Positions 14,557 to 60,422 of a stretch of DNA of 64,000 nt are shown here, one piece after another. Within the stretch, counting starts at the first letter, position 1, and the number at the start of each line of letters is the position of its first letter. The stretch is from IMG/VR virus record IMGVR_UViG_3300018877_000005, positions 1,523 to 65,522 of that record, one strand, 5' to 3'. Position numbers and translations under genes: made by a program. The stretch comes from a virus. The notes beneath the pieces were generated by a model. The model saw only the letters and a list, made by a program, of their open reading frames with translations. It was not told where the DNA came from and made no database searches.

Positions 14557-14572
14557 GTTAACGGGGTTTTAA
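14557..14572 (-). promoter_or_regulatory. Perfect CtrA box TTAA-N7-TTAAC upstream of the repressor gene
   Basis: gttaacggggttttaa = TTAA-AACCCCG-TTAAC on the minus strand. Confidence 0.6.
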
Positions 14573-14722
14573 TCCTTTGGGGCGACGGACAAATCCAACC
14601 AAAAAGTGAAAATCTTCTCGGGGGGCCGATTGACTCGGCTCCAACTTTATATATGTATGTCAACATCAGGTTGATACTGAGGCCAGAAGTCAACCCTCGG
14701 CAACGTATATAAGGGAGACAAC

Positions 14723-15439
14723 ATGCTAGAGGTTCAGGTGAGAAACCCAATAATAGCGGCAGACTTCGCAAAGAGATTGGACATCGCGTGTGACAACAGT
14801 GATGTCGTTCCAGAGTATAACCGTGGTCGTCAAAGCTGGATCGCCAATGAACTACTTCGGCGGTACGATGTCAGCGTCAGTAAAGAGACCGTGCGCAAGT
14901 GGTTCGCAGGTGAGGCCCGCCCCCGCCATGACAAGATGAAGGCACTCGCGGCCCTCCTCAAAGTTGACGAGGCGTGGCTCGCCCTCGGCATGAAGCCGGA
15001 CGCTCAGATCAGCGGCGACCGGCGCTTGCGGAGCATCATCACGGACGGGGCGATCCACCTCGTCATCGGAATGGTGACAATGAGCGGCGGAAGCTGCGCC
15101 TTCCCCGACGACAAGGACCCGCGCCGGGAGACGGTTCACTTCTACACGATCATCGGCGGTCGCACGCATCAGGTCTTCGTGTCGGTCGCGCAGGAATATA
15201 ATGACGGTTTCCGGTTCACCCTGACGCACGACTACACGCAGAGCCTCTGCATCGGTGTGGTTCAGAAGACGGCCACCTCGTTTGATCTGTTCGCCTTCCC
15301 GACGGAAACGATTGCCAAGCACGGGAAGAAGCGCGGCGGCTATATCGAGTTGCAGGCTTCCGTCGAAGGCCGCTCCCTCGTGATCGGAGACGAGAAGGTC
15401 GCCCGCGTCACCGATTTCAAGAGCCTTCGCCGCCAATGA
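14723..15439 (+). CDS. XRE-family HTH repressor (candidate immunity repressor), C-terminal domain unassigned
   Basis: VSKETVRKWFAGEARPRHDKMKALAALLKVDEAWLALG; no recognisable S24 autopeptidase. Confidence 0.75.
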   Translation: MLEVQVRNPIIAADFAKRLDIACDNSDVVPEYNRGRQSWIANELLRRYDVSVSKETVRKWFAGEARPRHDKMKALAALLKVDEAWLALGMKPDAQISGDRRLRSIITDGAIHLVIGMVTMSGGSCAFPDDKDPRRETVHFYTIIGGRTHQVFVSVAQEYNDGFRFTLTHDYTQSLCIGVVQKTATSFDLFAFPTETIAKHGKKRGGYIELQASVEGRSLVIGDEKVARVTDFKSLRRQ

Positions 15440-15542
15440 GCCGGGAGACCATTATCAAGCCCTTATTACGGGCACGAGAGAAACCGCCGCCGACACCTCG
15501 CCCGAACCCTTGGGCGAGGTTTTTGATTTCAGGAGAGCCCCC

Positions 15543-15788
15543 ATGAATGAGCTTGAACAGAAGATCGCGGACCTGCGCCTCGCGCCTGGAGGGCCGTCCG
15601 TTGGCGAGGTGTTGATCGCCGGCCTCAAGAGCCTCGGGCGCAAACCCGAAATCGGGCTCGCCAGGGCCTATATCTCTCGCATTGTGGAGATCGCTCAGGC
15701 GGAGCGCGATATTGCCGTGGGCGAGGCTCTCTCGTGGCCTAAAGACGGCAAGCCTCGGGATTGCTTCGGCAACACCCTATCGGACTAA
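15543..15788 (+). CDS. Hypothetical protein (81 aa)
   Basis: AGGAG RBS before the ATG at 15543. Confidence 0.55.
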   Translation: MNELEQKIADLRLAPGGPSVGEVLIAGLKSLGRKPEIGLARAYISRIVEIAQAERDIAVGEALSWPKDGKPRDCFGNTLSD

Positions 15789-15812
15789 AAGAAAAGGGGC
15801 CTCGTGGCCCCT
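15787..15812 (-). terminator. Terminator for the leftward par operon
   Basis: ggggcc-tcgt-ggcccc with an A tract on its left. Confidence 0.6.
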
Positions 15813-15849
15813 ATGAAGTCAATGAAGTCAATGAAGTCATTCACTTCAT
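15813..15849. repeat. Downstream parS-like array: ATGAAGTCA x3 plus one inverted copy
   Basis: Copies at 15813, 15822, 15831; inverted TCACTTCAT at 15841. Confidence 0.8.
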
Positions 15850-15866
15850 TGACAGGCGCGAATGGC

Positions 15867-16292
15867 TTACTTCGCCCGCTCCCGCTCCAGCATATCCATC
15901 AGCATATCGAATGCCTCCCGATAGCTCGGGATACGCTCATCGTGGCACCATTGCAGGAACGCATTGTGCGATCTGACGGAGATGCGTGCCGTGAACGATA
16001 TGGTCGGTTCATCGACCTGCTTGCGGCGGCGCATAGGCATGAACGGTTGCGGAGCCTCGACCTGCGCGACAGGTGATGCTTTGGAATTGGTGCGCGTAGC
16101 CTTCGGGGCCGGATCGGGCTTCTTAGGGGCGGCCTCGTGACCCCCCTCCCCTACTGGCCCATCCGTCTTATCCCAACCCGCCTTGCGTGAAAGCTCAGTC
16201 ACCGCCTTTTCCGCCTCGGGCGGGAGAGGGGGAAGTTCTACTTTCCGCACCCTCGGAATTTGCGGAGTCGGGCGTTCCAACTTCTCACTCAC
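15867..16292 (-). CDS. Type Ib partition centromere-binding protein (disordered N-terminus, C-terminal ribbon-helix-helix-like)
   Basis: GTGA overlap with parA; C-terminal TISFTARIS strand followed by two helices. Confidence 0.6.
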   Translation of the reverse strand: MSEKLERPTPQIPRVRKVELPPLPPEAEKAVTELSRKAGWDKTDGPVGEGGHEAAPKKPDPAPKATRTNSKASPVAQVEAPQPFMPMRRRKQVDEPTISFTARISVRSHNAFLQWCHDERIPSYREAFDMLMDMLERERAK

Positions 16293-16981
16293 GCTGCGTC
16301 CCTCCCCTCTCCTGTAATTTTGCCAAGTGCGATCTCAACCTCGTCAACCCATTTATCGGCGTTTGCGATGGCCTCCTCTACACCGTTCACTTCCTTGATC
16401 CCAAGCCTGATGAAGTCGTCCAGGGTTGCGGCGAAAGTGAACATGGATTCGTAGGCCACCCGAAGTTGAATGCGGGTCTCAAAAAGCGGGAGTTGGAGCT
16501 TCTCAATGTCGGCCCGAATGTTCCTCTCACCAATCGTAGGTCTCGCCCGACATTTGGTCATGAGCATGTGAAATGGGATTCTCTTCCCCAACACCTCTTC
16601 CTCGTCTTGCACGAGACCTGCGGACTTGAATGCCTCGTCCGCATCCAACTGAGTTGCGCCAAGCGGGACGATGACCATTGTCGCACGGGCGATGGCCCGT
16701 GAAGCGGTCATGTTGGTGGACCCCTCAAGATCGACAAGCACCATGTCAGACTCGCGGTACGCCCTGTCGATCTCTTTGATGACGTTCTCCGTCTTCACGT
16801 CGGAGATCACATCGAAAACCTTGTTCTTAGCGCGGCTGTGCCACCGGGAGATTGGTTGGTTCCGGTCGGCGTCCAGAATTGTTACTTTGTAGCCGCGTGC
16901 GGCGAGGCGCGTCCCGAGAATGGCGCAGGAGGTGGACTTACCCGCGCCCCCTTTGGCTGACGTGAATGGAACGATTGGCAT
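16289..16981 (-). CDS. parA: ParA partition ATPase, short type Ib (no N-terminal HTH)
   Basis: Deviant Walker A SAKGGAGKSTS, LDADRN, VLVDLEG, IVPLG; AGGAAGG RBS supports a start at 16981. Confidence 0.9.
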   Translation of the reverse strand: MPIVPFTSAKGGAGKSTSCAILGTRLAARGYKVTILDADRNQPISRWHSRAKNKVFDVISDVKTENVIKEIDRAYRESDMVLVDLEGSTNMTASRAIARATMVIVPLGATQLDADEAFKSAGLVQDEEEVLGKRIPFHMLMTKCRARPTIGERNIRADIEKLQLPLFETRIQLRVAYESMFTFAATLDDFIRLGIKEVNGVEEAIANADKWVDEVEIALGKITGEGRDAA

Positions 16982-17017
16982 GAATGGCTTCCTTCCTGTC
17001 ATTGGCATCACCGACAC

Positions 17018-17235
17018 CAATGACTTACCTGCTTTCAATGCGGTCACGTCACTCAATGCCATCCATGAATTAACGTCAGGTAAAGAAGTCAGTTAAATGA
17101 CTTCATTGAATTACATGACTTCATTGACTTCATTAAACGCGGTCAACGCATTGACCTATTCTAATGAAGTGATGGCATTGACGGCGGTTAACGCCTTGAC
17201 TGGCATTAATGAAATGACCGGGGTGACTTACTCCA
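17018..17235. repeat. Upstream parS/operator array: degenerate 9-bp periodic TGACTTCAT repeats
   Basis: Exact copies at 17098, 17116, 17125, with many in-phase variants; same 9-mer as at 15813. Confidence 0.75.
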
Positions 17236-17864: not shown

Positions 17865-18112
17865 TTGATATTGAGCCTTGACGGCGGAGCGATTCCCACG
17901 CTTCCTACGCAATTATTGTTCTGAGAGGAGCGGACACGCTGCGATGAGCTAGAAAAGGAAAGGGCTCCGAGACGGCAATCTCGAAGCCCTTTAAATCCGG
18001 TGGGTTGGTCAACCCCTAAGCAAGAGCGACCTTCCCACAAAATTCGGAACTCGTCAACGGAGATCGATTCTCCGAACGGTCCCTTTTTGTGCAAAGCGCA
18101 GCCCGTAAGGGA

Positions 18113-18772
18113 ATGACGCAAACGAATACCTACGCGGCTATCGAGGCCGCGCTTCGTGCTGACTTGGCGGCACTGCCTCGGTGCCGGGTCCGTGAGGACG
18201 CGCTCAGGATCGGGCTCTTTATCGCCCGCACCCATGCCGCCTATGACCGGCTGTTCACGTTCCCCCGCGAAATCATGGCCGGACACAAGGCGCTCCTGGC
18301 CGCGTGCGGGGAGATGACCGCCTCGCGGGTACGCTCGTGCCTGAAAGCCCTTATCAAGCTCGGATGGATCGAGCAGACGAACGAGGATACGTTCTTCTAT
18401 CGGCGCTTTGGCGTGTGGAAGGACACCCCCAACCAATACCGCTCGGGCTCTAAGCTCTCAGCGTTTTTCCCCGAAACTGCCACGATAAGAGAATCCTCTG
18501 ACGAGATTCTAGAGATAGTGGCAGTTAAGGACCTGCCGCCGATCAAGCCCAAGGGGAAGTCTCGCCGGGCGATCAATCTGGCGCTCAAGCTCAAGCGCCT
18601 CGCGGCGGCCATAGCTCTGCGGAAGGCGGAAGCCGCCAAGCCTCGGGAGCGCCTCTCGCGGCCCGTGATGCCGCACTCGACCGAACAGAGCCCGGCGTTC
18701 AACTCGTGGCTCGACCGGCTGCAAGCGACCCTCGCGCCCAACGCTCTCGCGGCGAGTACCGGATCAGCGTAG
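18113..18772 (+). CDS. Candidate plasmid replication initiator (winged-helix-like), family unassigned
   Basis: TASRVRSCLKALIKLGWIEQ wHTH-like segment, basic C-terminus, position next to the par locus. Confidence 0.4.
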   Translation: MTQTNTYAAIEAALRADLAALPRCRVREDALRIGLFIARTHAAYDRLFTFPREIMAGHKALLAACGEMTASRVRSCLKALIKLGWIEQTNEDTFFYRRFGVWKDTPNQYRSGSKLSAFFPETATIRESSDEILEIVAVKDLPPIKPKGKSRRAINLALKLKRLAAAIALRKAEAAKPRERLSRPVMPHSTEQSPAFNSWLDRLQATLAPNALAASTGSA

Positions 18773-21066: not shown

Positions 21067-21233
21067 GTATAGGTGGCGGGAAGAAGATCAAACAGACGCA
21101 GCAACCGCAGGTCGGGTGGTCGAAGGCCATGAAAGCGGTCGCGTCCCGATTCCAGACCATTGACGAGAGGGCGCAGGAACGGGCGCAGCGCATAAAGGAC
21201 CGTCTTGCGGCGCGGGACAAAGATCAAGGGTGA
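21063..21233 (+). CDS. Small basic hypothetical protein (56 aa)
   Basis: ATGA overlap, GAGG RBS. Confidence 0.45.
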   Translation: MSIGGGKKIKQTQQPQVGWSKAMKAVASRFQTIDERAQERAQRIKDRLAARDKDQG

Positions 21234-21251
21234 GGCGGGCGGCGTGTTCGT

Positions 21252-21293
21252 CTGACATGGAAAGGGGCGCTTCGGCGTCCCTTTCCATGTCAG
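21252..21293. terminator. 19-bp stem with UUCG loop, terminator-like
   Basis: ctgacatggaaaggggcgc-ttcg-gcgtccctttccatgtcag. Confidence 0.65.
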
Positions 21294-21388
21294 GGGATGC
21301 CATGTTGTCGCATGTCGTCCCAAAACCAGGCTTGAATGTCACCATTAAAGTGACTATACAACTGTCCATTGAGACAACATGGGACACC

Positions 21389-21619
21389 ATGACAACCATT
21401 GACACAAGAGACGAGGACCTGCGCCTCCTGCGGATCGATCAAGTCTTAGAGCTTGTTCCGTTCGCCCGCTCGTCCCTCTATCGCGCAATCAAGGCGGGGG
21501 AGTTCCCGGCCCCGATCAAGTTCGGCGGCGTGTCGCTTTGGAGCAATCAGGAAATCCGCGCCTGGAAAGGCCGCCTCATGGCGTCCCGGTTCGACCGCGA
21601 CAATGACGACTTAGTGTGA
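21389..21619 (+). CDS. alpA: AlpA/excisionase-like DNA-binding protein
   Basis: RLLRIDQVLELVPFARSSLYRAIKAGEFPAPIKFG..LW. Confidence 0.85.
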   Translation: MTTIDTRDEDLRLLRIDQVLELVPFARSSLYRAIKAGEFPAPIKFGGVSLWSNQEIRAWKGRLMASRFDRDNDDLV

Positions 21620-21623: not shown

Positions 21624-22247
21624 ATGGCTCGGAGAGATGATGATCTGATAGGCGGGGGTGAGCCCGTCGAACAAGTGTCCCTGCGGACGGCGGACGTTCA
21701 TAGCGTCCTCGGCGGCGTGTCGGTCCCGTGGCTCATGAAGGCGTTCCGCATGGGGCGCGGCACGGTCGAGAAGAAGTTGCGCGGATGCCAGCCCATCGGC
21801 CACGGCAAGCACAACACGCCCCTCTATGACCTGCCGGAAGCGGCGAGCTACCTCGTCAAGCCTCGCGTCAACATGGAGGAGTACCTTCGCAGCCTGAAGC
21901 CTGACAACCTGCCTGAGCGGCTGCGCGAGAGCTATTGGAGCGCCAAGCTCAAAGAGCAGCGGTGGCGCGAAAAGGCCGGCGATCTCTGGCGCACCTCGGA
22001 CGTGCTGACCGTGTTCGGTGAGGTGCTCCAAAACATGCGGACCCGGCTCCAACTCCTGCCGGACGCCATCGAACGCGCAGCCGGACTCGATGAGCGCCAG
22101 TTCGCAGCCGCCAGGGCGGCGGTCGATGAGGTTCAGGACGACATCTATCAGGAGCTTCAATCCCTCGCCAAGACCGGCAGGACCTTGAGCCAACTCGGGG
22201 AAGAGGAGGGTGGCGATACTCGGGACGATGAGGACGATCTGATATGA
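21624..22247 (+). CDS. terS: Terminase small subunit (Chi-like/DUF1441-like)
   Basis: Directly upstream of TerL; N-terminal wHTH-like region, helical C-terminus. Confidence 0.75.
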   Translation: MARRDDDLIGGGEPVEQVSLRTADVHSVLGGVSVPWLMKAFRMGRGTVEKKLRGCQPIGHGKHNTPLYDLPEAASYLVKPRVNMEEYLRSLKPDNLPERLRESYWSAKLKEQRWREKAGDLWRTSDVLTVFGEVLQNMRTRLQLLPDAIERAAGLDERQFAAARAAVDEVQDDIYQELQSLAKTGRTLSQLGEEEGGDTRDDEDDLI

Positions 22248-24322
22248 CCTATCACACCATGGAGGAGATGCTGCGCTCGACCGCCGAGGCGATCCGACCC
22301 CCCGAGCGGCTCACCGTGTCCGAGGCGGCAGAGAAGTACCGTCAACTGAACAACCCCGGCCACTATGTCGGCCCGTGGGACAACTCCATGGCCCCGTACC
22401 TCACGGAAATCATGGATGAGATGAACTCACTCGATTACACGGGCTTGATCTTCGCCGGCCCCGCCCGTTGTGGCAAGTCGGACATCTTTTTCAACTGGCT
22501 CACGCACATTTCGATCTGCGACCCGTCCGACACCATGCTCGTGCATATGACGCAGAGCACGGCCCGAGATTGGTCACAAGGCGACCTGCGCAAGTTCTTC
22601 CGCACGACCAAGGAAGTCGGTAAGCGCGTCACGCCGGGCCGTCAGAACATGAACGTGCATGACATCCGGTTCCTGAGCGGAATGCGGCTTCTCGTGAAGT
22701 GGCCGACCATCACCGAACTGTCGGGAAAGACCATCCGCAATCTGTGGTGCATGGACTATGATCGTATGCCGCAGGACGTGGACAAGGAAGGGACCCCCTT
22801 CGACCTCGCCCGCAAGCGTGCTCAGACCTTCAAGCGGTACGGCATGGCCGTCGCGGAAAGCTCGCCGGGCTACGAGATCACCAATCACCGTTGGGTGGCG
22901 CAGACGCCGCACGAGGCCCCTCCGACCGAAGGAATCCTCTCGCTCTACAACCGTGGCGACCGCCGTCGGTTCTACTGGCGTTGCGCCCAATGCAAGCGGG
23001 CGTTCGAGGGTGACTTCAAGTGCATCTCCTACCCCGACTCCAAGGATCATCTCGAAGCCGCCGAGATGGCGACCCTCGATTGCCCCTACCTCGATTGCGG
23101 CTACTCGCACACCCATGAGCCCGGCCCCGGCCAGCCCGGCAAGCATGAACTCAACTACTATGGGAAGTGGATCAAGGACGGGCAGAAGTGGGACGATGAC
23201 GGTTCCGTCGTGGGGGAGGCCGCCCGCTCGGACATCGCGAGCTTTTGGCTCAAGGGCGTGGCCGCTGCCTTCGTAGATTGGAAGTCGCTGGTATTCAAAT
23301 ACCTCAAAGCCATGGAGGAGTTCGAGCGCACCGGATCGGACTCGGCGCTCAAGACGACCGTCAACACGGACCAGGGCCTTCCGTACCTCCCGCCGTCCCT
23401 CGAAGGTGAGCGTCTACCGGAAGACCTGAAAAAGCGGGCGACCGATCTCGGGGAGCAGGTTGTCCCGGCAGGCGTCCGGTTCCTCGTGGCGTCCATCGAC
23501 GTGCAGAAACGACGCTTCGAGGTGCAGGTCCACGGTATCGGCGTTGGCGGCGACATCACGGTCATCGACCGCTTCAACATCAAAAAGTCGAACCGTAAGG
23601 ACGAGGACGGTGAGCGGCTTCCGCTGAGCCCGGCGAGCCACCTCGAAGATTGGCAGTTGCTTGTCGAGGCGGTGATCGAGAAAACCTACCCGCTCGGGGA
23701 CGGCTCGGGCCGACACATGAAGATCAAGGTGATTGGCTGCGACTCGGGCGGTCGCGCAGGCACCACGGCAAAGGCTTACGAGTTCTGGCGGTGGCTCAGG
23801 GACGAGCATCCCGGCCAACATCATCTGCGGTTCCAATTGCTGAAGGGTGAGCCGAACGCCGCCGCTCCTCGCGCCCGCATCTCCTATCCCGACTCGGATC
23901 GCAAGGACCGCAGGGCAGGGGCTCGCGGCGAGGTGCCGGTGCTCATGCTCAATTCCAACGCGATCAAGGATCAAGTTCACGCCATGCTCGGACGCACGGA
24001 GCCGTTCGGCGGCTGCGTCAACTTTCCCGATTGGCTCGAAATGTGGTTCTACATGGAACTCACGGCGGAGATCAGAACCCCGAAGGGGTGGGACAACCCG
24101 AAGAAGCAGCGCAACGAAGCCTGGGACCTGCTTTACTACTGCGTCGGAGTGTGCCTGTCCCGGCACGTCAAGGTTGAATCAATCGATTGGGATACCCCGC
24201 CCGCGTGGGCGAAGGAATGGGACGAAAACGATATGGTGTTCTCACCGGAGGAAGCGAAGCCGTTCGAGCAACAAGGCTCCAGAACGGTCGATCTGGCCGC
24301 TCTCGGGCGGACTCTTGCCTAG
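22244..24322 (+). CDS. terL: Terminase large subunit, lambda gpA family
   Basis: GPARCGKS, MDYDR, ESSPG, RRRFYWRCAQC, SIDVQ, NEAWDLLYY. Confidence 0.95.
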   Translation: MTYHTMEEMLRSTAEAIRPPERLTVSEAAEKYRQLNNPGHYVGPWDNSMAPYLTEIMDEMNSLDYTGLIFAGPARCGKSDIFFNWLTHISICDPSDTMLVHMTQSTARDWSQGDLRKFFRTTKEVGKRVTPGRQNMNVHDIRFLSGMRLLVKWPTITELSGKTIRNLWCMDYDRMPQDVDKEGTPFDLARKRAQTFKRYGMAVAESSPGYEITNHRWVAQTPHEAPPTEGILSLYNRGDRRRFYWRCAQCKRAFEGDFKCISYPDSKDHLEAAEMATLDCPYLDCGYSHTHEPGPGQPGKHELNYYGKWIKDGQKWDDDGSVVGEAARSDIASFWLKGVAAAFVDWKSLVFKYLKAMEEFERTGSDSALKTTVNTDQGLPYLPPSLEGERLPEDLKKRATDLGEQVVPAGVRFLVASIDVQKRRFEVQVHGIGVGGDITVIDRFNIKKSNRKDEDGERLPLSPASHLEDWQLLVEAVIEKTYPLGDGSGRHMKIKVIGCDSGGRAGTTAKAYEFWRWLRDEHPGQHHLRFQLLKGEPNAAAPRARISYPDSDRKDRRAGARGEVPVLMLNSNAIKDQVHAMLGRTEPFGGCVNFPDWLEMWFYMELTAEIRTPKGWDNPKKQRNEAWDLLYYCVGVCLSRHVKVESIDWDTPPAWAKEWDENDMVFSPEEAKPFEQQGSRTVDLAALGRTLA

Positions 24323-24388
24323 AAAGTCACTAAAAGGTTGAAGATACACCTATGACGTGGCACCCTGCAAGCCAAATGGAGGCCCTTT

Positions 24389-25537: not shown

Positions 25538-25613
25538 CTTTGGGTGGAATGTCACTATTAAGTTGAAATGGCAACTGTGCCGTGTTACAGCGGACAAATC
25601 AGACAGGTGGGGC

Positions 25614-28916: not shown

Positions 28917-28969
28917 CCGCGCTCTCCCCATCCCTCCCGCAACTAGCCAACATCAACGGAGTTTGAAAC

Positions 28970-29383: not shown

Positions 29384-29445
29384 ACACCCCTCTCGCAGCA
29401 ACAGCTATCGGCACCGCCAGAAGCTAAATTCAGGGAAAGACGAAA

Positions 29446-48337: not shown

Positions 48338-48405
48338 CTTTCTTGTGAAAGTCAACAAAAACGTGTAAGTCCAACTTTGAGGTTCTAAGCAAAGGAGTCA
48401 GAACC

Positions 48406-48834: not shown

Positions 48835-48838
48835 CACC

Positions 48839-50326: not shown

Positions 50327-50335
50327 GGGGCGGTC

Positions 50336-51418
50336 ATGGCCGAGGATTTTACGTCTGACGAGGATATTGTCCAAACCCCTGCATACATCATCCTCCCTGA
50401 CGTAATCACGGTTGGGGCGAGGGGGGCGACGGGTGCCGCCCCCATCACTTCCGATAACGTCCCCATGAGCTTTGACCTGGGCGGGGCGGTCATCGACGTG
50501 AACGGTCTCGGCACAACTGACTCCTGGCGTCTGCCGGACTTCAACTATGGCTATGGGGACCTCGGGTTCCCGGCCTTCGGCGCGTCCGCTCGCCTCAAAT
50601 TCGAGTACACGGTCAGGTCCTCGTCGCGCTTCCCGGCCTTCGGCGCGTCCGGCCTCGCGACCTTCCCCCTCAAACTCTATGGCGGGGATGCCACCTTCCC
50701 GGCCTTCGAGGTGTCGGGCGTAGCCGAGCCGTCCGTCATCGACGTTCGCGGCGAGGTGCGATTCCCGGCCTTCGGAGTCGAGGGGCAGGTCGCCGTCCCG
50801 TTCGCCATGACGGGCGAGACGCGATTCCCGGCCTTCGGGGCGGCGGGGCGGGCTTCCTTCCCCATCGAGCTACGCGCTGCGGTGGGCTTCCCGCCATTCA
50901 TCCTGAGCGTCGAAGTCGATTACACGCGCCCGCCCGATGTCGATGTCACGGGCTCCCCGACCTTCCCGACCTTCGAGGCGGCGGGCGACCTCTACATGCC
51001 GACATGGGGGAGGGGCGTGTCCGCGTTCCCGACCTTCCGTGCGATGGGCGAGGCGACATCGCCGCTGTGGCTCAGGGCGGACGCCACGTTCCCGGCCATG
51101 GCCTCGGACGGTTTGGTCTTCATCCCGATCCGAGGCAACGGGCACGCCACGTTCCCGACGTTCACGGCGGAGGCGCGAGGCGGTCGCCCGGTCTCCCTCG
51201 ACGCCAACACGGTGTTTCCGAAGTTCGGCGTCACGGCGAGCGCCATGCAGGCTATCGAGATCGTCGGGGACGCCACGTTCCCCGGCTTCAGGACCCGCAT
51301 CATCGTCAACGGACTACCGGCAGAGGGTGGCGGCGGTACGCGCTTCGGATCGTTTGGCGGGGTCGCCATCGGAGGAAGCGTGATGTTCGGACACGGCAAC
51401 ACAATGAGGATTGGATAA
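50336..51418 (+). CDS. Repeat fibre-like protein with about 12 FPxF repeats of about 21 aa
   Basis: FPAF/FPTF units from about 50560 to 51300. Confidence 0.65.
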   Translation: MAEDFTSDEDIVQTPAYIILPDVITVGARGATGAAPITSDNVPMSFDLGGAVIDVNGLGTTDSWRLPDFNYGYGDLGFPAFGASARLKFEYTVRSSSRFPAFGASGLATFPLKLYGGDATFPAFEVSGVAEPSVIDVRGEVRFPAFGVEGQVAVPFAMTGETRFPAFGAAGRASFPIELRAAVGFPPFILSVEVDYTRPPDVDVTGSPTFPTFEAAGDLYMPTWGRGVSAFPTFRAMGEATSPLWLRADATFPAMASDGLVFIPIRGNGHATFPTFTAEARGGRPVSLDANTVFPKFGVTASAMQAIEIVGDATFPGFRTRIIVNGLPAEGGGGTRFGSFGGVAIGGSVMFGHGNTMRIG

Positions 51419-51772: not shown

Positions 51773-52858
51773 ATGCAGATCACACGAGCGGAGCTTGCCG
51801 CCGTCGAGGCGAAGGCCAAGCAACACGGATGGGAGTTAGCTGCGCTCCTGTCCGTTATCAAGACCGAGAGTGACGGGGTATTCCTGACTCCGGTCAATGG
51901 GCGACCGGAGCCCGTCATTCGGTGGGAGGGGCATTACTTCGACCGGCTCCTCTCCGGTGCCAAGCGGGAGAAGGCCCGCAAGCAGAAGCTCGCAAGTCCC
52001 AAGGCGGGCGCGATCAAGAACCCGAAATCCCAAGCCGACCGCTACGCGCTCCTCGAACGCGCCAAGCTCATTGACGAGGACGCGGCCCTGATGTCGTGCT
52101 CCTGGGGCGGCGGGCAGGTCATGGGCTCCCATTGGGAGGACCTCGGCTACCCAAGCGTTCAAGCGTTCGTCGCAAAGGCCCGCTCGGGCTTCGCCGGGCA
52201 GCTTGAAATCATGTGCCAGTTCATCGTCAAGAACGGCCTCGGGGACGAGATCGAGCGCCTCGACTTCGCAGGGTTCGCCCGTGGATACAACGGCCCGAAC
52301 TTCCGCGCCCTCGGGTACGATAAGAAGCTCAAGGCGAACTACGAGTTCTTCGCCGGTAAGCCGGTCGCCACCTCCCCGGCCTCGGGTATGCTGCGCATGG
52401 GCGCGAAGGGTGCCGCCGTGCGCGAGCTTCAAACCCTCCTCGGACGTGCCGGCCTCGTGGTGAAGGTGGATGGGGACTTCGGCCCGGCGACCCGCGATGC
52501 CGTGAAGGTGTTCCAAGAGCTTTCGGGCCTCACCGTGGACGGCGTTGCCGGTCCCGCCACCATGAAGCTCCTCCTGGCCCGCAAGGCGAGCCCTGACGAG
52601 GTTCCCGGCAAGATCGCCCTCGCGGACCTGCCGGAAGCCAAGACGGCCCTCGGCGGCGTTCTGAGCGGCCTTACCTCGGCCACGGCGGCGGGTGAGATCA
52701 ACACCCTTGCCGACAAGCTCAATTCGACCGGCTTGCAGTTCTTCGAGTACGCCGCGAGCGGCCTCTACCTCGTGGCGGGCGTCCTTGTGGTCGGGGGTCT
52801 CGCTTACGGCCTCTATGGTCGCCTCAAGTCGAACCGGACCTTCGAGGGGACGACCTGA
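51773..52858 (+). CDS. Endolysin: DUF3380-type N-acetylmuramidase, peptidoglycan-binding domain and hydrophobic C-terminus
   Basis: KTESDG, IRWEGHYF, SWGGGQVMG, FARGYNG; VDGDFGPAT..FQ..GL.VDGVAGPAT. Confidence 0.88.
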   Translation: MQITRAELAAVEAKAKQHGWELAALLSVIKTESDGVFLTPVNGRPEPVIRWEGHYFDRLLSGAKREKARKQKLASPKAGAIKNPKSQADRYALLERAKLIDEDAALMSCSWGGGQVMGSHWEDLGYPSVQAFVAKARSGFAGQLEIMCQFIVKNGLGDEIERLDFAGFARGYNGPNFRALGYDKKLKANYEFFAGKPVATSPASGMLRMGAKGAAVRELQTLLGRAGLVVKVDGDFGPATRDAVKVFQELSGLTVDGVAGPATMKLLLARKASPDEVPGKIALADLPEAKTALGGVLSGLTSATAAGEINTLADKLNSTGLQFFEYAASGLYLVAGVLVVGGLAYGLYGRLKSNRTFEGTT

Positions 52859-53196
52859 TGTTCGACGCCCTCAAAGAGTTCGTCACCTACACCGTGCCGT
52901 GGTGGACGTGGATCGTCCCCGCTGGCGCGGCAGGGGTGGCTATCTTCGTCAGCGTCAGCCGTGTGGTCGGCTGGCGCAACGCCCTCATCATCACCCTCGG
53001 TTACGTCATGGCCGTCATCACCGCCCTCGCACAATCCCGTGGCCGGCAGCAGGGGTGGAAGGATCGCATCAAACAGGAGAACAGAGATGCAGAGACGCTT
53101 GTTTCTCGGGCGAATGCTGCGCGTGAGCGCACTCGTCGCGACAATGGCACTCGTGAGCGGCTGTATCACGACGACGGGTTCAAGCGGGGCAGCTAA
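52858..53196 (+). CDS. Inner-membrane spanin (Rz-like)
   Basis: N-terminal hydrophobic segments, helical C-terminus overlapping a lipoprotein gene. Confidence 0.6.
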   Translation: MFDALKEFVTYTVPWWTWIVPAGAAGVAIFVSVSRVVGWRNALIITLGYVMAVITALAQSRGRQQGWKDRIKQENRDAETLVSRANAARERTRRDNGTRERLYHDDGFKRGS

Positions 53197-53323
53197 GGCC
53201 CTCTGCGAGACCTTCCGACCGACAACGTGGTCTGATGGGGACACCCCCGAGACCGTGGCACAGATCAAGGAACACAACGCCGTCTGGAAAGACCTCTGCG
53301 GCAGGAACCGGGGACCGACATGA
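53087..53323 (+). CDS. Outer-membrane spanin lipoprotein (Rz1-like)
   Basis: Signal peptide with lipobox LVSG-C; overlaps the i-spanin 3' end; CAGGAG RBS. Confidence 0.7.
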   Translation: MQRRLFLGRMLRVSALVATMALVSGCITTTGSSGAAKALCETFRPTTWSDGDTPETVAQIKEHNAVWKDLCGRNRGPT

Positions 53324-53595
53324 GTGAGGATACACTAACCGCAATCAAGGTCGCCCTTGGCAAGATCGAGGTGACGACAGAGGCAACGAGCCGCCGCATG
53401 GAGGTTATCGAGACAAAGTTGAGTGGTGTCATGGTTGACAAGGACCTTGATCCCATGCGTGAGCAAATCAAGTCGATCTCGATCCGTTTGAAATCCCTTG
53501 AGAGCTTTCAAACATGGCTCCAGCGGGGAATCCTGGCCCTCGTGTTCGCGGCCCTCTTCGGGCTCCTCGTGACGACGAAGAAAGCCGGAATGTGA
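53320..53595 (+). CDS. Coiled-coil protein with a C-terminal TM segment, possible holin-type lysis protein
   Basis: WLQRGILALVFAALFGLLV; last gene of the lysis cassette. Confidence 0.45.
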   Translation: MSEDTLTAIKVALGKIEVTTEATSRRMEVIETKLSGVMVDKDLDPMREQIKSISIRLKSLESFQTWLQRGILALVFAALFGLLVTTKKAGM

Positions 53596-54842: not shown

Positions 54843-55847
54843 TCACGCGACAAGTGACCGCAGGATGGCCGCGTAACCGCCTTCCGCCTCCTCGTGGTCA
54901 AGGTCAAATCTACGTTTGATGTCAGCAATGTAGTCGGTTTCGCGCTCGACCAAGATTGCATTCCTCCCTTCATCCAGCGCGGCTTGTCCTGTCGTACCCG
55001 ATCCTGAGAACGGATCGAGAACAAAACCATACTTGGGAGTCACCAGTCTGACAAGATGTCGCAGAAGTGCGACGGGCTTAACGGTTGCGTGATCGGAGCC
55101 GGCGCGGTCCTCTTTCGTGGCCTTGCCGTGGTGGAAGATATTGGCCTCCAAGGGAAAGCTCGCGAAATACTCCAGGGGCACCCGTGCTCCGACCTCGGGC
55201 GAACCATCTGTGAGTAAGTTCGACGGCCAGCGGTCGCCGGGACCGCGACAGGCATCGACGTTCATCGCCCCTGCGCCATGCTTCAGGACGTTCGCGATCC
55301 CGGTCTTTTCCGAGAACGGCTTCTGAGCGACGTAGATCGGCTCCAGGGCCGGTTTCAGGGTTTGGGTGGAATGATACCATCCCTCCCACTCTTCCGTGCC
55401 GACCGGGCTCTTTCCCGGCTTGTGGATCGCGTGCGCCTTCGGGAAGCCGGTATGATAGGTCCAGGCGATGAACGGGTGCATCTTGAAGCCCGCCGCTTCC
55501 ATGGCGACGGCTTGGTGATGCCCGGTCGAGGCGTGCGAGAAGGCGAGGCAGTAGCCGCCCGGCAGGAGCAGGTCATAGACCCGCCGCCAGAACGTCGGAT
55601 CATGCGCAATCTTGTAACCGTTGTCGCCGCCGTCCCATGTGCGCTCCATGAAGCCTCGGGATTGCCGGGCGAACCGTCCGTCGGAGCCCGCCTTCGCGGC
55701 CTTCGAGCCCTCTTTGCCGAACCGCTTGACGATGGATTCGAGGTAGTAGGGCGGGTCTGTGACGCACGAATGAACCTGCACGCCCTCGGCGGCAAGCTCC
55801 ACGAGGACATCGTTCGCGTCCCCCTCACATAAACGGACGGTCGCCAT
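54843..55847 (-). CDS. DNA methyltransferase, N6-adenine/N4-cytosine beta class
   Basis: Motif IV VTDPPY before motif I VLDPFSGSGTT; HATVKP. Confidence 0.9.
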   Translation of the reverse strand: MATVRLCEGDANDVLVELAAEGVQVHSCVTDPPYYLESIVKRFGKEGSKAAKAGSDGRFARQSRGFMERTWDGGDNGYKIAHDPTFWRRVYDLLLPGGYCLAFSHASTGHHQAVAMEAAGFKMHPFIAWTYHTGFPKAHAIHKPGKSPVGTEEWEGWYHSTQTLKPALEPIYVAQKPFSEKTGIANVLKHGAGAMNVDACRGPGDRWPSNLLTDGSPEVGARVPLEYFASFPLEANIFHHGKATKEDRAGSDHATVKPVALLRHLVRLVTPKYGFVLDPFSGSGTTGQAALDEGRNAILVERETDYIADIKRRFDLDHEEAEGGYAAILRSLVA

Positions 55848-56080
55848 TAGATCAGGTCCTCGTTCTGGCGCTTTTTGATGGGGTTGTCGCGCTTCTGTTC
55901 GTCCCGATGGCAGAGCGCGTTGTAGAGGGCGTCCACAGGGTCGGCCTGTATCTCGACCTTGTAGGCACCGGAGTCGTCCATGCGGGCGCTCACTTGGAAT
56001 CCGTCCATGACGGGCACGAGCATGATTGTTCTAATGGAGCCGTCCGCGAACGCTCGCCGGATCATCTCTTCGAGGGACAT
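55847..56080 (-). CDS. Hypothetical protein, paralog of 56080-56328
   Basis: MSLEEMIRRA...NEDLI. Confidence 0.6.
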   Translation of the reverse strand: MSLEEMIRRAFADGSIRTIMLVPVMDGFQVSARMDDSGAYKVEIQADPVDALYNALCHRDEQKRDNPIKKRQNEDLI

Positions 56081-56328
56081 CAGATCAAATCCTCAGAACG
56101 GCCCCGTAGAGGCGCGGCAGGAGGGGTTGTGGGGGTTCGGGAGGGCTTGACGTTCATCGCGCCTAGAATGGCCGCTACAACGTCCTTATCGCGGTGCCTG
56201 ACGTTGGCCTTGGCCTTCACGTCCACGTAGGCGACATCCCATCCCTTGCCGTCAGAGGAGGGAGCGATGCTCAGGTAGTTGAGACGCCCGCTCTCGGCGG
56301 CTTTGCGGAGGGTATCTTCGAGGCTCAT
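56080..56328 (-). CDS. Hypothetical protein, paralog of 55847-56080
   Basis: MSLEDTLRKA...SEDLI. Confidence 0.6.
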   Translation of the reverse strand: MSLEDTLRKAAESGRLNYLSIAPSSDGKGWDVAYVDVKAKANVRHRDKDVVAAILGAMNVKPSRTPTTPPAAPLRGRSEDLI

Positions 56329-56426
56329 CGGATGGCCCCGAGGGTGATCGCCACGGGGAGTCCGAACGCTGCAACGAAGATGAGGGCGAGGACGACTCTA
56401 GCGCCGATCTTCTCAACCTTACGCAT
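56325..56426 (-). CDS. Small membrane peptide (33 aa)
   Basis: MRKVEKIGARVVLALIFVAAFGLPVAITLGAIR. Confidence 0.4.
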   Translation of the reverse strand: MRKVEKIGARVVLALIFVAAFGLPVAITLGAIR

Positions 56427-56427
56427 C

Positions 56428-56718
56428 TCAGCCTGCCATCCCGAGGGCCTGCATGTAGAGTTCGAGGATTGCCTCTTCCTCCTGGCGCTCGGCGTAGTCG
56501 CGTTTGCGCAGGGCGATGATGCGACGGATGACCTTCGTGTCGAAGCCGTTGCCCTTGGCCTCGGCATACACCTCGCGGATGTCGCCCGAGATGCCGGCCT
56601 TCTCTTCTTCGAGGCGCTCGATCCTCTCGACAAACGCCTTCAGTTGATCGCCCGCAACCGACTCCGTGTTGAACGCACGGTCGGAGTTGTGGCCGATCAA
56701 ATCGTCATTGCGTGACAT
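56428..56718 (-). CDS. gapR: GapR (DUF2312/UPF0335) nucleoid-associated protein
   Basis: [54 protein letters not shown]. Confidence 0.93.
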
Positions 56719-56754
56719 GCTGTTCTCCTAGTCACTATTTGGTTGAAATTCAGG

Positions 56755-57186
56755 TCAAGCCATTTGGATCGGTTGTCCCGCGACCTCGGCCTCTGCGAAG
56801 GTGATGTAGCGGTCCAGGGCGTCCATAAAGCGGATGCGGGCAGGGACGGGACGGCGACCGGCCATATACCAACCCTCCAGGGCGTAGAACACCACGTCCT
56901 CGCCAGCCGGGATTTTGTTCGCCTCGACGTACTCGTTCATGGTGATGCGGCGATGCACGAAGCCCTGCGGCGGGTAGATGAACTCGCAATCAAGCTCGAT
57001 CCGAAGTTCTGCGACGTGCCGGGCTTTGTATAAGTCCTGCAAGCCGCCCTTGTCCCGCCAGCGGGTGAGGTACTTGAGGATCGTGTGACAGAACGAGTCC
57101 AGTTGGTTGTAGCCGCTGAACATGAACGGCTGGATGCCTCGGTTCTTGTAATGGTCGCCGCCGACCTGCGTAGCAATGGCACTCAT
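56755..57186 (-). CDS. DUF3310-like protein
   Basis: QVGGDHYK..IQP..LKYLTRWRDKGGLQDLYKA. Confidence 0.8.
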   Translation of the reverse strand: MSAIATQVGGDHYKNRGIQPFMFSGYNQLDSFCHTILKYLTRWRDKGGLQDLYKARHVAELRIELDCEFIYPPQGFVHRRITMNEYVEANKIPAGEDVVFYALEGWYMAGRRPVPARIRFMDALDRYITFAEAEVAGQPIQMA

Positions 57187-57250
57187 GATTTGCCCCTTGT
57201 TCGGTAAGGCTTGGCTCACCGTAGTTGATTTGTCAATGTTAGGTTGAGAT

Positions 57251-57997
57251 TTACCACAAATCTTCGGAGAAAAGAATGGTCGGATTACCATGCTTTTTGA
57301 TAATCTGCCCTGCCTTCGTGGCGATCTCCAGGGCTTCTTTGCGACCCACGAAGCGACCTCGCGTCGTCACGAAACCTTGCTCGCCCGTGATCGGCGTCTT
57401 GTGGCCGTTATCGGCCATGGCGCGAATGATGTCGTGGTGTCGGGCAGGGCGGGGGAGGCAGACCGGGCGTCCCTCGGAATCCTTGATCGCGGCTACGAAG
57501 ATTTCCTCGTGATCGGCGCGAATATAGTGACCCGCCTCGGTCTGCCTTAACCATACGCGAGGCTCGCTCATATGCTCCGCACAGACGACCTGACCGAACT
57601 CTTGCTGACAAACGCAATCCTCGCGGCAGAACTTCGGCTTATCGAGGCTGCGGTCATGCTCAATCGGCACGTCGCCGGCAACCTTCCGGTACACCCGTTG
57701 GTCGAGGACGACTTGCTTCGCGTCCATGGCGTCATTGAGTTGCTCACAGGTATGGCCGGCGCGATACATGGAGTCGAGCACGAGGAACATGAGGTCCGCA
57801 AACTCCATGATGTCTCTCGGAGCCTCGGCGGCTTCGAGGGCTTCCTTCGAGAGATGCTTCAGGGGGCCGACAGGGCCGCGCTCATCGCGGTCCCCGAAGT
57901 TCCTTACCGACCACTCGCGATGTCTTGCGACGGTCTCGGCCCGCAGGACAAAACCGTACTGCGGGGATGCGTCTCGTGTTGCAATGTTCGTTGTCAT
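57251..57997 (-). CDS. DUF550-like dATP/dGTP pyrophosphohydrolase fused to a phage hypothetical domain
   Basis: GPVGPLKHLSKEALEA..EFADLMFLVLD..RAG; C-terminal PARHHDII..QGFVT..GRFVGR.EA..IA. Confidence 0.75.
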   Translation of the reverse strand: MTTNIATRDASPQYGFVLRAETVARHREWSVRNFGDRDERGPVGPLKHLSKEALEAAEAPRDIMEFADLMFLVLDSMYRAGHTCEQLNDAMDAKQVVLDQRVYRKVAGDVPIEHDRSLDKPKFCREDCVCQQEFGQVVCAEHMSEPRVWLRQTEAGHYIRADHEEIFVAAIKDSEGRPVCLPRPARHHDIIRAMADNGHKTPITGEQGFVTTRGRFVGRKEALEIATKAGQIIKKHGNPTILFSEDLW

Positions 57998-58009
57998 GAT
58001 CGTTCGTCC

Positions 58010-58792
58010 TTAAACGGCAACTTTGCCTTTGATGGATGGGTGAGCTTGATAATCGAGGACGAGGAAATCCTCGAACTTGTAATCGAAGATGGAGTCCGGC
58101 TTGCGGGCGAACTTCAGCGTCGGAAGAGGGTAGGGCTTCCGCGTCATTTGGAGCGCCAGTTGCGGGACATGGTTCTTGTAGATATGCACGTCACCGCCGC
58201 TCCAAATAAGCTCGCCAGGATGCAGGTCGCATTGCTGCGCAAGCATGTGGAGGAGGGACGCATAGAACGCGATGTTGAAGGGTACGCCGATGAACACGTC
58301 TGCGGACCTCTGTTGCACCATGAGATTGAGCTTGCCGTTAATCACCATGACCTGAAAAGCCATGTGGCACGGGTGTAGCGCCATGTCGTCAAGTTCACCC
58401 ACGTTCCACGCTGAAACGACCATGCGGCGGGAGTCGGGGTTCGTCTTGATCTCATGCACGAGCCACGAGATTTGATCGATGCGATCATCCCACTTGCGCC
58501 ATTGCGCACCATACACCGGCCCGAGATTGCCGTACTCGTCCGCCCATTTATCCCAAATGCTGACGCCGTTCTCTTGCAGGTAGCGGACGTTCGTGTCACC
58601 GCTCAACATCCACAGAAGCTCATGGATGATCGATTTGAGGTGGAGCTTCTTCGTGGTGAGGAGTGGAAACCCGTCACGCATGTCAAAGCGCATCATGTGA
58701 CCCGAGAGCCGGATCGTGCCGGTTCCCGTGCGGTCCTCGGACTCTTCACCTTCGTTGAGGATGCGCTCGACCAGATCGAGATATTGCTTCAT
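58010..58792 (-). CDS. thyA: Thymidylate synthase
   Basis: [49 protein letters not shown]. Confidence 0.97.
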
Positions 58793-58925
58793 TGGACAAC
58801 CCTATTGTCACCATTAGGTTGACGTTATGAGCGCGGTTTTATCGTTTTGCAAGGGGAAGATCGCAAAGACAGCCTCACACAAGCATCTCGGGCTTAGGTG
58901 CCGACTGAGATCATAGGGGGTTCGG

Positions 58926-60422
58926 ATGAGTCTTTACGGCGTTCTGCGTAGCGGCGTCTCTGGCATGAATGCGCAATCGAATAAGCTAGGGACCGTGGCC
59001 GATAACATTCAGAACTCAAGCACGAACGGCTACAAGCGTGCCTCGACGGAGTTCTCATCCCTCATCCTGCCGTCGGGCGAGGGGAGCTATAACTCGGGCT
59101 CCGTGACGAGTCGGGTCCGCTATACAATATCCGACCAAGGGCCGATTGCTTACACGACATCCTCGTCAGACTTGGCGATCTCGGGCAACGGCTTCTTTGT
59201 GGTCACTGACGCAAGCGGCTCACCCTACCTGACCCGCGCCGGAAACTTCGTCAAAGACGGGCGGACGGGCGACCTTGTCAATGCTGCCGGCTTTACCCTG
59301 ATGGGCTACAAGTTAGGGGAGGGGGCCGTGAACCCCGCTCTGAACAGCCTCGACGGTGCCGTGCCGGTCAACATGGCGTCTTTCGCTATGCAGGCGACCG
59401 CCTCGACGCAGGGGACGTTCACGGGCAATCTGCCGTATGGTGCCCCTATCGCGGTGGCGGTAGGGGTGGGCACCCCCGCCGATCCGGCAGCAACCCCACC
59501 TGTGTCTGGAAGCGTGCTTTTCCCGCCACCCGCTATGCAGAGCGGGGAGAAGGTCAAGTTCTCGGTTGGAGGTGGACCGGAGCAAACGTTTGTCATCACG
59601 ACACAAAAGACCGTTGCCGATCTCGCAGACGACATTAACGCCGCCGTAGCTGCCGGCACTCTCACCGGAGTCAGTGCATCGACAACAGCCGATGGTGAAT
59701 TGGTACTGACCTCGACCGACCCCCTCAACAATACGGACGTAACGGGGACCTACACGTCCGTAACCAAAGCCTCGTCGCTTCAGGTTTACGATAAGGTTGG
59801 CAACCCGATCAAGATCGATATTGCCCTGTCCAAGATCAGCGCGACACAATGGAGTATCACCGTTCTCAACGGCTCCGATCCCACGTCGTCGCTGACCGGC
59901 ACGACAACAATGATGTTGAACTTCGATGCCGACGGACAGCTTACCGGCCCATCGACGCTGACGTTTGACATCCCTGGCGGCGAACCGTTCACGCTCGATA
60001 TGGGCGGTACTACGCACCTCGCGGGCGACTACAGCGTCACCGGCACGTCGAACGGCAATGCCCCCTCGGCGGTGAAGGATGTCGAGTTCGGAGCCGACGG
60101 GACGGTCTACGCGGTCTATGAGGATGGCACCCGAGTCGGCGCTTATCGGATTCCGCTTGCGAACGTCGCGAGCCCTGACAACCTCAACCCTCGTGCCGGG
60201 AATGTCTATGAGCCGACCGCAAGCTCAGGCGGCTACCAAGTCGGCTTTCCCGAGGAGTCGGGCTTCGGCTCTATCGCCTCGGGAGCCCTGGAAGGATCGA
60301 ACGTCGATATTGGTACGGAGCTAACGGCCATGATCGAAGCTCAGACCAGCTACACGGCCAACTCGAAGGTGTTCCAGACGGGTTCCGAGTTGCTCGATGT
60401 CCTTATGAACCTGAAGCGTTAA
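58926..60422 (+). CDS. flgE: Flagellar hook protein FlgE, rhizobial type, with an internal extra domain
   Basis: GVSGMNAQSNKLGTVADNIQNSSTNGYK, DLAISGNGFFVV, YLTRAGNF, LEGSNVDIGTELTAMIEAQTSYTANSKVFQT; AGGGGG RBS. Confidence 0.95.
   Translation: MSLYGVLRSGVSGMNAQSNKLGTVADNIQNSSTNGYKRASTEFSSLILPSGEGSYNSGSVTSRVRYTISDQGPIAYTTSSSDLAISGNGFFVVTDASGSPYLTRAGNFVKDGRTGDLVNAAGFTLMGYKLGEGAVNPALNSLDGAVPVNMASFAMQATASTQGTFTGNLPYGAPIAVAVGVGTPADPAATPPVSGSVLFPPPAMQSGEKVKFSVGGGPEQTFVITTQKTVADLADDINAAVAAGTLTGVSASTTADGELVLTSTDPLNNTDVTGTYTSVTKASSLQVYDKVGNPIKIDIALSKISATQWSITVLNGSDPTSSLTGTTTMMLNFDADGQLTGPSTLTFDIPGGEPFTLDMGGTTHLAGDYSVTGTSNGNAPSAVKDVEFGADGTVYAVYEDGTRVGAYRIPLANVASPDNLNPRAGNVYEPTASSGGYQVGFPEESGFGSIASGALEGSNVDIGTELTAMIEAQTSYTANSKVFQTGSELLDVLMNLKR

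Follow-up and report, generated by a model that had tools for sequence, protein, structure and literature searches.

Remodelling of the bacterial flagellum by a prophage is known from Enterobacter, in which the flagellin-remodelling prophage FRphi and fliC_P-TldR loci were described (bioRxiv 10.1101/2023.11.30.569447; Nat Microbiol 2026, PMC13418256). The FRphi FliC isoform combines a conserved core with divergent D2-D3 domains and improves both motility and immune evasion (PMC13418256). To our knowledge, prophage-driven remodelling of the flagellum has hitherto been shown for flagellin in Enterobacter only. Among alphaproteobacterial phages, control by CtrA has been published, including the Chi-related temperate Ruegeria phages, and a repressor-based temperate lifestyle was described for Ruegeria DSS3phi1-like members (PMC9437464). 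Neither phage-plasmids nor CtrA-responsive phages nor the swapping of flagellin by prophages are new. Here, we describe a temperate Casjensviridae-like siphophage of soil crust, which carries a flagellar hook protein gene (flgE) and a partition cassette in the slot of the integrase. The window, i.e. the whole stretch of 64,000 nucleotides (nt) that was analyzed, comprises bases 1523-65522 of the single 67,072-bp virus record IMGVR_UViG_3300018877_000005 (~95% of the genome), and all positions refer to it unless otherwise noted. Like FRphi, the window phage is temperate and has its own version of a flagellar axial protein, with host-like D0/D1 regions and an exposed outer domain that may differ from the host copy, as it does in the relative G016; an altered flagellar composition is shown or proposed in these cases. 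In contrast to FRphi, the protein is FlgE of the hook and not flagellin, soil Hyphomicrobiales serve as hosts, and expression and incorporation are predicted. A TnpB-derived TldR repressor was searched with PF07282, which gave no match in the window phage (G000) or in a second flgE-bearing phage, G016.

The hook gene and the element in front of it are located as follows:
58926..60422, plus strand, against the direction of the adjacent genes: complete hook protein gene flgE, 498 amino acids (aa), according to Pfam, NCBIfam, homologs, the ratio of non-synonymous to synonymous substitution rates (dN/dS) and a tree
58808..58822, plus strand: phage regulatory motif TCACCATTAGGTTGA in the gap between thyA and flgE, identical in the sister phage L005

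FlgE is encoded in one intact frame with a rod N-terminus, D1, D2, a Flagellin_IN motif and the FlgEFG C-terminus. PF00460, PF22692, PF07559 and PF06429 were all over their cut-offs, and the score for the TIGR03506 subfamily was 268.9 (cut-off 70). The FlgE equivalog model NF004243 was not reached (535 bits versus a cut-off of 801), the match being split by a central insert. No PHROG family was found for this FlgE, and Pfam and PHROG scans of the open reading frames (ORFs) of the window gave no other flagellar family. Matches to FlgE in 50,697 GenBank phage records were distant only (~30% identity) and belonged to unannotated fragment or metagenome-derived records. The nearest relatives are the FlgEs of Microvirga, and Microvirga (Hyphomicrobiales) is the most likely host. 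Two chromosomal FlgEs, which are 83% and 85% identical, also have 498 aa and are encoded in fliI-flgE-flgK-flgL-flaF clusters of the usual kind, of which one is part of a contig of 397 kb; the proteins of M. lupini, M. vignae and M. solisilvae have 480-490 aa. Because this 498-aa or 480-490-aa build is shared by chromosomal Microvirga-like FlgEs, the insert was considered host-native. The initial annotation had described a modified FlgE; the gene is a genuine, intact flgE, and a modification by the phage is not supported, since chromosomal proteins with 83-85% identity have the same build.

A 97%-identical FlgE is found in the same thyA and pyrophosphohydrolase context on the sister-phage contig L005. 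Between these two genes, 16 non-synonymous and 62 synonymous differences were counted, and a dN/dS of 0.08 indicates that flgE is under purifying selection. The thyA-flgE junction is bridged by contigs of three studies (biocrust, soil and rhizosphere); hence, the linkage of flgE to the phage is not an assembly chimera. On the other side, a 239-aa ORF without family matches (60419-61138, minus strand) is convergent on flgE. It represents an indel: sister-phage contigs in three runs omit 60424-61177 and carry 31 other bases instead.

Relatives were compared using 26 related IMG/VR records, 11 of them complete. flgE was present in one of these, G016, which is syntenic with the window. This circular contig of 64,173 bp belongs to the Amorphus orientalis assembly, and its ends overlap by 19 nt. 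When IMG/VR was scanned with a single FlgE protein, nothing was obtained; with a FlgE alignment, G016 and the record L120 were found. As in the window, the flgE of G016 (574 aa) is a plus-strand gene within the leftward arm, with the methylase on one side and the primase on the other, and a FlgE-protein search in G016 yielded no FlgE-like gene besides this one. Since the window FlgE is nested in Microvirga (support 96) and the G016 FlgE is sister to the chromosomal FlgE of A. orientalis (support 100) in a tree of the conserved columns, flgE was captured twice, independently, each copy being matched to its host. A single phage FlgE clade, a grouping named after the tree had been seen, was 302 log-likelihood units worse and was rejected (approximately unbiased (AU) test, p = 3e-52). 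Searches of the literature yielded no report of a hook gene carried by a phage, nor of its double capture from the two hosts.

At its two ends (the first 170 and the last 134 residues), the G016 FlgE shares 92% identity with the A. orientalis host protein. Its central region has 164 extra residues compared to the host copy and looks like a duplicated D2. A host-like core with a divergent outer domain is seen in this comparison of G016 with its host, and it lends some support to the hypothesis of hook remodelling. The Amorphus orientalis assembly contains a chromosomal 410-aa and a phage 574-aa allele; because the end segments of the phage protein match the host, one sequenced culture holds a short and a long FlgE with the same polymerisation core. 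An assembly with both alleles is a directly testable system. In Microvirga, FlgE forms of ~400 aa and of 480-498 aa are interleaved on the core tree; the outer insert has thus been repeatedly gained, lost or recombined among host strains. Independent acquisition from the own host genus and intact retention in two related phages argues for a real benefit of the gene.

Two further flgE loci were noted. An orphan 498-aa flgE, 81% identical to that of the window, is located at 10001-11497 of L003 / L004 without flagellar neighbours; it adjoins a 1840-aa RTX-like protein and an rve fragment, and nothing else is common with the phage. The provirus record L120 (IMGVR_UViG_2693429793_000001) ends inside a flgE which is 56-58% identical over residues 1-170. 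The 6 kb beside this gene are unrelated to the phages described here, and it could be the edge of a provirus or a third phage flgE.

The regulatory motif in front of flgE recurs in the window, among others at the lysogeny region, for which the following features were determined:
14558..14572, no strand: perfect CtrA box TTAACGGGGTTTTAA (motif scan)
14630..14674, plus strand: repressor promoter TTGACT-N16-TATGTA, directly followed by the palindromic operator TCAACATCAGGTTGA (14660-14674), from the sequence
14723..15439, plus strand: XRE-type cI-like regulator (PHROG 2967, E 3e-20; HTH_3)
7225..7512, minus strand: Cro-like small helix-turn-helix (HTH) protein (Pfam P22_Cro/YdaS matches under the gathering cut-off)

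The XRE-type cI-like regulator is presumably the lysogeny repressor; its orthologs adjoin integrases in relatives. The motif TCAMY-N5-GTTGA had 17 hits compared to 0.45 expected (positions 3797, 7555, 14660, 17854, 24327, 25552, 32487, 34076, 51743, 54554, 56732, 57233 and 58808) and is conserved in L022, L005, L023 and G011. Divergent early promoters, among them the repressor and Cro promoters, have palindromic copies, the operator TCAAC-N5-GTTGA at 7555-7569 being directly upstream of the Cro-like gene. All asymmetric copies are on the plus strand, mostly in short gaps before late genes. Operator-like sites scattered across the genome in one orientation are also a property of mycobacteriophage cluster A, and we take the copies in the window to resemble the 'stoperators' of mycobacteriophage L5. 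The copy at 58808-58822 overlaps a -35-like TTGACG, 104 bp upstream of flgE, which suggests that flgE is wired into the phage circuit. This motif may serve repression in lysogens or activation. A sigma-54 GG-N10-GC element was not seen upstream of flgE by eye. For G016, the repressor operator was not identified and no operator was found upstream of its flgE.

A CtrA box at the repressor had been reported in the initial annotation, and this was confirmed. The box at 14558-14572 is the single perfect match to TTAA-N7-TTAA in the window and lies in the promoter region, 58 bp upstream of the repressor promoter; at least one perfect match occurred in 8 of 100 shuffles of the window. In the sister phage L022, whose repressor is 79% identical, ATGGTTAA...TTAATCCTT is kept with four of the seven spacer bases changed. 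The intergenic DNA around the box is poorly conserved between the two phages, and the promoter/operator region of the repressor is the same save one base. Perfect boxes were present in only two further records among the 26 relatives. In G011, which has an integrase, no flgE and a repressor 33% identical to that of the window, the box precedes the -35 of the repressor promoter by 5 nt, and this promoter also bears a TCAAC-N5-GTTGA operator. The other 11 relatives with this repressor have no perfect CtrA box, and none was found in five host flagellar loci. CtrA input to the repressor is probable in part of the clade, judged from these sites. The idea of such an input is plausible and already published for alphaproteobacterial phages: the CtrA-controlled 'lytic deferment' phages (Mascolo et al. 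2022, PMC9437464) likewise have a host CtrA box in a regulatory intergenic region. Whereas their boxes form clusters in terminal repeats or gap regions (PMC9437464), the window has one predicted box at the repressor promoter.

Downstream of the repressor, a partition cassette was found, which consists of the following parts:
15795..15859, minus strand: terminator and downstream centromere-like array of 9-bp ATGAAGTCA repeats (array 15813-15859), from a repeat/terminator search
15867..16292, minus strand: 141-aa ParA partner, probable ribbon-helix-helix (RHH) centromere-binding protein (ParG/ParB-like), from language-model similarity
16289..17062, minus strand: ParA-family partition ATPase, Walker-type (Pfam VirC1/CbiA/ParA; PHROG 164; NCBIfam ParA_partition)
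17088..17152, no strand: upstream array at the par promoter, with the 9-bp ATGAAGTCA repeats inverted

Thus arranged, ParA and its partner form an operon which is closed by the terminator and has 9-bp repeat arrays on both flanks. The partner has no Pfam or NCBIfam match; its language-model neighbours are clusters annotated as 'stability/partitioning determinant' and RHH (score 0.93). In type Ib partition loci such as pB171 par2 and TP228 parFGH, a small Walker-type ParA and an RHH-like partner are combined with centromere repeats up- and downstream. The cassette of the window shares the small ParA and the repeats on both sides of the operon, and its small partner may be RHH-like as well; in contrast to these loci, profile searches support its ParA alone, the RHH fold of the partner being suggested by language-model similarity only. 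In L022, ParA (91% identity) and the partner (79%) are present and the complete arrangement of repressor, ParA, WGR protein and 227-aa protein is retained.

A tyrosine integrase, a serine recombinase or a protelomerase was not found in the complete 67-kb genome using six-frame searches and PF00589, PF00239 and PF16684. Of the complete IMG/VR relatives, 10/11 have an integrase, many IMG/VR relatives are classed as proviruses and ParA was found in none of the 26. An integrated prophage relative with a 76%-identical TerL is located in the chromosome of Mesorhizobium sediminum KCTC 42205 (contig 1, ~2.14-2.18 Mb; L008, L017-L021). Its integrase is split into two fragments directly beside an AlpA-like gene and terS; the block from AlpA and terS to the methylase is common with the window at 30-76% identity, and the early and lysogeny genes differ. 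Three metagenomic contigs of 63-67 kb (L023, L024 and L118), whose kinship is known from primase, Cro, repressor and WGR genes ~50% identical to those of the window, have repABC and a resolvase where the window has ParA. Since relatives carry an integrase, the window lineage par and these contigs repABC in the same place, the slot between repressor and terS is read from the comparison as a swap site for lysogeny modules. It is a natural example of integrating phages becoming phage-plasmids.

A complete virion module and plasmid-maintenance genes are thus present together on one replicon. The best and fairly secure reading of this sequence is a plasmid-like, non-integrated prophage, most likely a low-copy circular plasmid, because the par cassette occupies the slot of the integrase. 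The last 67 bases of the genome duplicate bases 2-68; therefore, the molecule is circular or terminally redundant, and this overlap is the sole hint of a circular molecule. Non-integrated carriage, as proposed in the initial annotation, is supported by the par cassette, the absence of recombinases, the integrases of the relatives and repABC at that place. Of the Par/Rep module claimed there, ParA, the partner and the flanking repeats stand. The 'Rep' does not: the 227-aa protein at 18089-18772 is an orphan winged-helix protein without Pfam, PHROG or NCBIfam match, and a Rep identity is not supported, as neither Rep-family homology nor a Rep-specific fold was found. It has five homologs among 1.8 billion representatives; its structure model (pLDDT 62) gave generic MarR/ArsR-type winged-helix matches only (E >0.05). 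A candidate initiator for both lytic and plasmid replication would be the D5-type Prim-Pol/DUF3987 primase-helicase. Work by Dedrick et al. in 2016 is said to have described extrachromosomal prophages of mycobacteriophage cluster A with parABS in place of the integration cassette. Like cluster A and the classical phage-plasmids P1 and N15, the window phage has a partition system, located in the integrase slot as in cluster A, and its ParA is distantly similar to that of cluster A mycobacteriophages. It differs from these phages in its unrelated virion lineage and in the type-Ib-like cassette (small ParA, small partner, two arrays), and the plasmid state is predicted.

The virion genes were compared with those of Chi-like phages, since the initial annotation had proposed a Chi-like virion with candidate fibres and entry via the flagellum. 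The relevant genes are:
21624..43811, plus strand: Casjensviridae-like packaging, head, tail-tube, tape-measure and tail-tip genes
45227..51418, plus strand: distal tail proteins unlike those of Chi (a cassette of 142, 495 and 360 aa, preceded by a 1036-aa protein of WD40/beta-propeller type)

The segment 21624-43811 encodes TerS/TerL, portal, protease, decoration protein, major capsid protein (MCP), connectors, tail terminator, major tail protein, a 1622-aa tape-measure protein and the tail tip. Identity of the MCP is 64% with Loktanella phage pCB2051-A, 47% with Rhodobacter phage RcCWillis and ~35% with Chivirus phages. Homology to Chivirus Siskin begins at the MCP and does not extend beyond the first 600 residues of the tail-tip protein; the genes gp31-36 of the Siskin fibre region have no counterpart among the window proteins. 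Thus, head, tail tube, tape measure and tail tip are Chi-related as claimed, but the distal fibre genes are unlike Chi. With a Chi fibre homolog absent from the window proteins, flagellar entry is not supported. Head, tail-tube, tape-measure, tail-tip and Enc34-type replication genes are homologous to those of Chivirus (Chi, Siskin), Loktanella pCB2051-A and Ruegeria DSS3phi1-like Casjensviridae; unlike these, the window phage has no Chi tail-fibre homolog, a par cassette instead of an integrase and, in addition, flgE, thyA and a methylase. The cassette of 142, 495 and 360 aa (48406-51418) corresponds in order to genes 105/107/108 of Agrobacterium phage 7-7-1 as well as to Milano gp1 (27-38% identity, partial matches), and both phages are flagellotropic. 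According to the 7-7-1 paper, tail fibres in general bind cell-surface molecules and lipopolysaccharide is the secondary receptor, while long curly capsid fibres are highlighted (PMC12796354). The similarity is therefore uninformative on the use of flagella, and the cassette was rejected as a sign of flagellotropism (PMC12796354). The 1036-aa distal tail protein (45227-48337) has WD40/beta-propeller repeats and is without a PHROG family. In the tape-measure protein (34112-38980), residues 1096-1349 form a lysozyme/endolysin-like domain.

As the best explanation of the whole, to which we lean with modest confidence, the phage would be a temperate plasmid prophage with a CtrA-fed repressor, whose FlgE is exported into the host hook. 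The prophage would be kept as a partitioned low-copy circular episome, replicated by the phage primase-helicase. Its repressor would be autoregulated via the TCAAC-N5-GTTGA operator, and CtrA, the host motility and cell-cycle regulator, would probably feed into repressor expression. The host-derived flgE would be expressed in its own transcription unit, preceded by the phage regulatory motif. Because the D0/D1 ends are host-like, export and hook polymerisation are expected; FlgE would probably pass the flagellar type III system and be co-polymerised into the host hook. By adding or substituting subunits with a different outer domain, the phage FlgE would change the outer layer of the hook, and a benefit may lie in hook surface or hook mechanics. 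In a wider reading, which is possible, if rather doubtful, temperate phages of Hyphomicrobiales in soil and saline habitats might repeatedly capture the host hook gene and express it from the prophage for hooks with a different outer domain. If true, this would be lysogenic conversion at the level of the hook, altering its mechanics or hiding the base of the flagellum from other phages, and prophage flagellar remodelling would extend from the filament to the hook, without an RNA-guided repressor.

Several points weigh against the favoured explanation. The genome is a metagenome assembly and known from sequence alone, and neither a lysogen nor an episome was observed. No sigma-70 consensus promoter is present upstream of flgE, and the operator-like site over the flgE -35 could mean that flgE is silent in lysogens and expressed in lytic growth only. 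The CtrA box is ~60 bp upstream of the -35, which is an atypical activator position, and there is no clade-wide enrichment of boxes (3 records with a box compared to 12 hits of the reversed control pattern). ParA ATPases may serve roles beyond plasmid partition, and in one of the complete relatives (G015) integrase and ParA are both absent.

If flgE is repressed in lysogens via the operator-like site, it could be a weapon of the lytic cycle: FlgE made upon infection or induction would flood the export gate or make aberrant hooks, filament assembly would stop, and superinfecting phages and released progeny would not be lost on the flagella of the dying cell. This fits the phage motif over the -35-like TTGACG, which also occurs before late genes and at the repressor and Cro promoters, as well as the host-like D0/D1 ends required for entry into export and assembly. 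However, the sequence does not fix which protein binds the motif and in which direction it acts, a poison needs no complete host-like outer domain under purifying selection, and the published flagellin case works in lysogens (PMC13418256). We consider such a weapon unlikely. Even less probable is that flgE is a passenger from illegitimate recombination with an apparent constraint caused by recent transfer or recombination with host alleles. It is true that the gene is closest to alleles of the host genus and that its synonymous divergence between the sister phages (0.18) is below that of thyA (0.44) and the pyrophosphohydrolase (0.55), which fits a recent exchange. Yet there were two independent captures, by phages whose hosts belong to different genera, and they agree in arm and antisense orientation; the frames are intact with the low dN/dS given above, the region upstream of flgE is conserved together with the phage motif (94% mean column identity in a two-sequence alignment), and phage variants from three studies have the gene; a mere passenger is thus very unlikely.

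The plasmid state itself could be questioned if the phage were virulent or pseudolysogenic and used ParA for, e.g., the positioning of replicating genomes. Apart from the lack of an observed lysogen, the word depth of ~128 of a sister phage contig in a rhizosphere metagenome could reflect lytic blooms. But the clade is overwhelmingly integrase-bearing and often called provirus, a repressor with an autoregulatory operator is retained, the par locus has the full centromere anatomy, and relatives carry repABC, so that we regard this as quite improbable. The initial annotation, finally, had combined the parts to a co-adapted unit, i.e. a flagellotropic, plasmid-borne phage which reads CtrA for its choice of lysogeny and re-coats the hook, so that competitors are excluded and the host stays motile. 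All four parts occur in the lineage of the window and are found again on the sister contigs L022 and L005; the combination recurs in this close sister phage only, which is not independent. The FlgE of G016 with its conserved core and different outer domain also agrees with such a unit, and the remodelling of flagellin by a prophage is a published precedent (PMC13418256). Across relatives, in contrast, the parts separate in independent lineages: G016 has flgE and an integrase without par or CtrA box, its integrase being located between repressor and terS; G011 has the CtrA box with an integrase and without flgE; and par is confined to the lineage of the window. Because flgE, CtrA box and par assort independently, the temperate phage is a mosaic in which these four parts are modules that can be separated, and their co-adaptation is not demonstrated. 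Furthermore, a Chi fibre homolog is missing, and the flagellin-remodelling phage enters via FhuA and not via the flagellum (PMC13418256). The co-adapted unit is thereby left with little probability, and its proposed co-occurrence across relatives was not borne out. We know of no phage for which the hook is an established receptor, which also counts against such a unit.

The entire genome was held by one run only, a biocrust metagenome, and related variants were detected in a second crust sample as well as in soil and rhizosphere metagenomes. The 67,072-bp record is rated 100% complete by CheckV. Using megablast, no close nucleotide relatives were found among GenBank phages or PLSDB plasmids. 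The remaining genes of the window are:
4874..7183, minus strand: primase/helicase with Prim-Pol, PriCT_2 and DUF3987 (Pfam; PHROG 3022, E 2.5e-123)
8610..14509, plus strand: replication module with DUF2800 exonuclease, Enc34-type single-stranded DNA-binding protein, DNA polymerase, VRR-NUC and SNF2 helicase (profile matches)
18089..18772, plus strand: orphan winged-helix DNA-binding protein, 227 aa (the former 'Rep')
21230..21619, plus strand: AlpA/Xis-like HTH protein directly before terS (Pfam)
51773..53595, plus strand: lysis genes, endolysin and holin
54843..58792, minus strand: early/accessory arm with N6/N4 DNA methylase, DUF3310 protein, dATP/dGTP pyrophosphohydrolase and thymidylate synthase (Pfam)

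The order of the genes is a leftward early arm, the rightward replication operon, the XRE regulator with par and orphans (among the latter, after the par cassette, the WGR and the 227-aa protein), the AlpA-like gene with virion and lysis genes, and a leftward accessory arm. The AlpA/Xis-like gene is retained despite the lack of an integrase. In the region of the genome ends outside the window and of window positions 63900-64000, a pair of direct repeats of 106 bp each (97% identity, spacing 218 bp) encloses the end overlap. A perfect tandem repeat of 25 bp x 2.1 is located ~350 bp before the genome end, and these repeats could be an origin or packaging site. The N6/N4 methylase of the phage (54843-55847) gave a weak match only to the CcrM model. 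GAATC/GATTC is not enriched in the first 8 kb of the genome (window 1-6500), in which GACTC/GAGTC is ~7-fold denser, with 70 sites compared to ~7 per 4 kb elsewhere.

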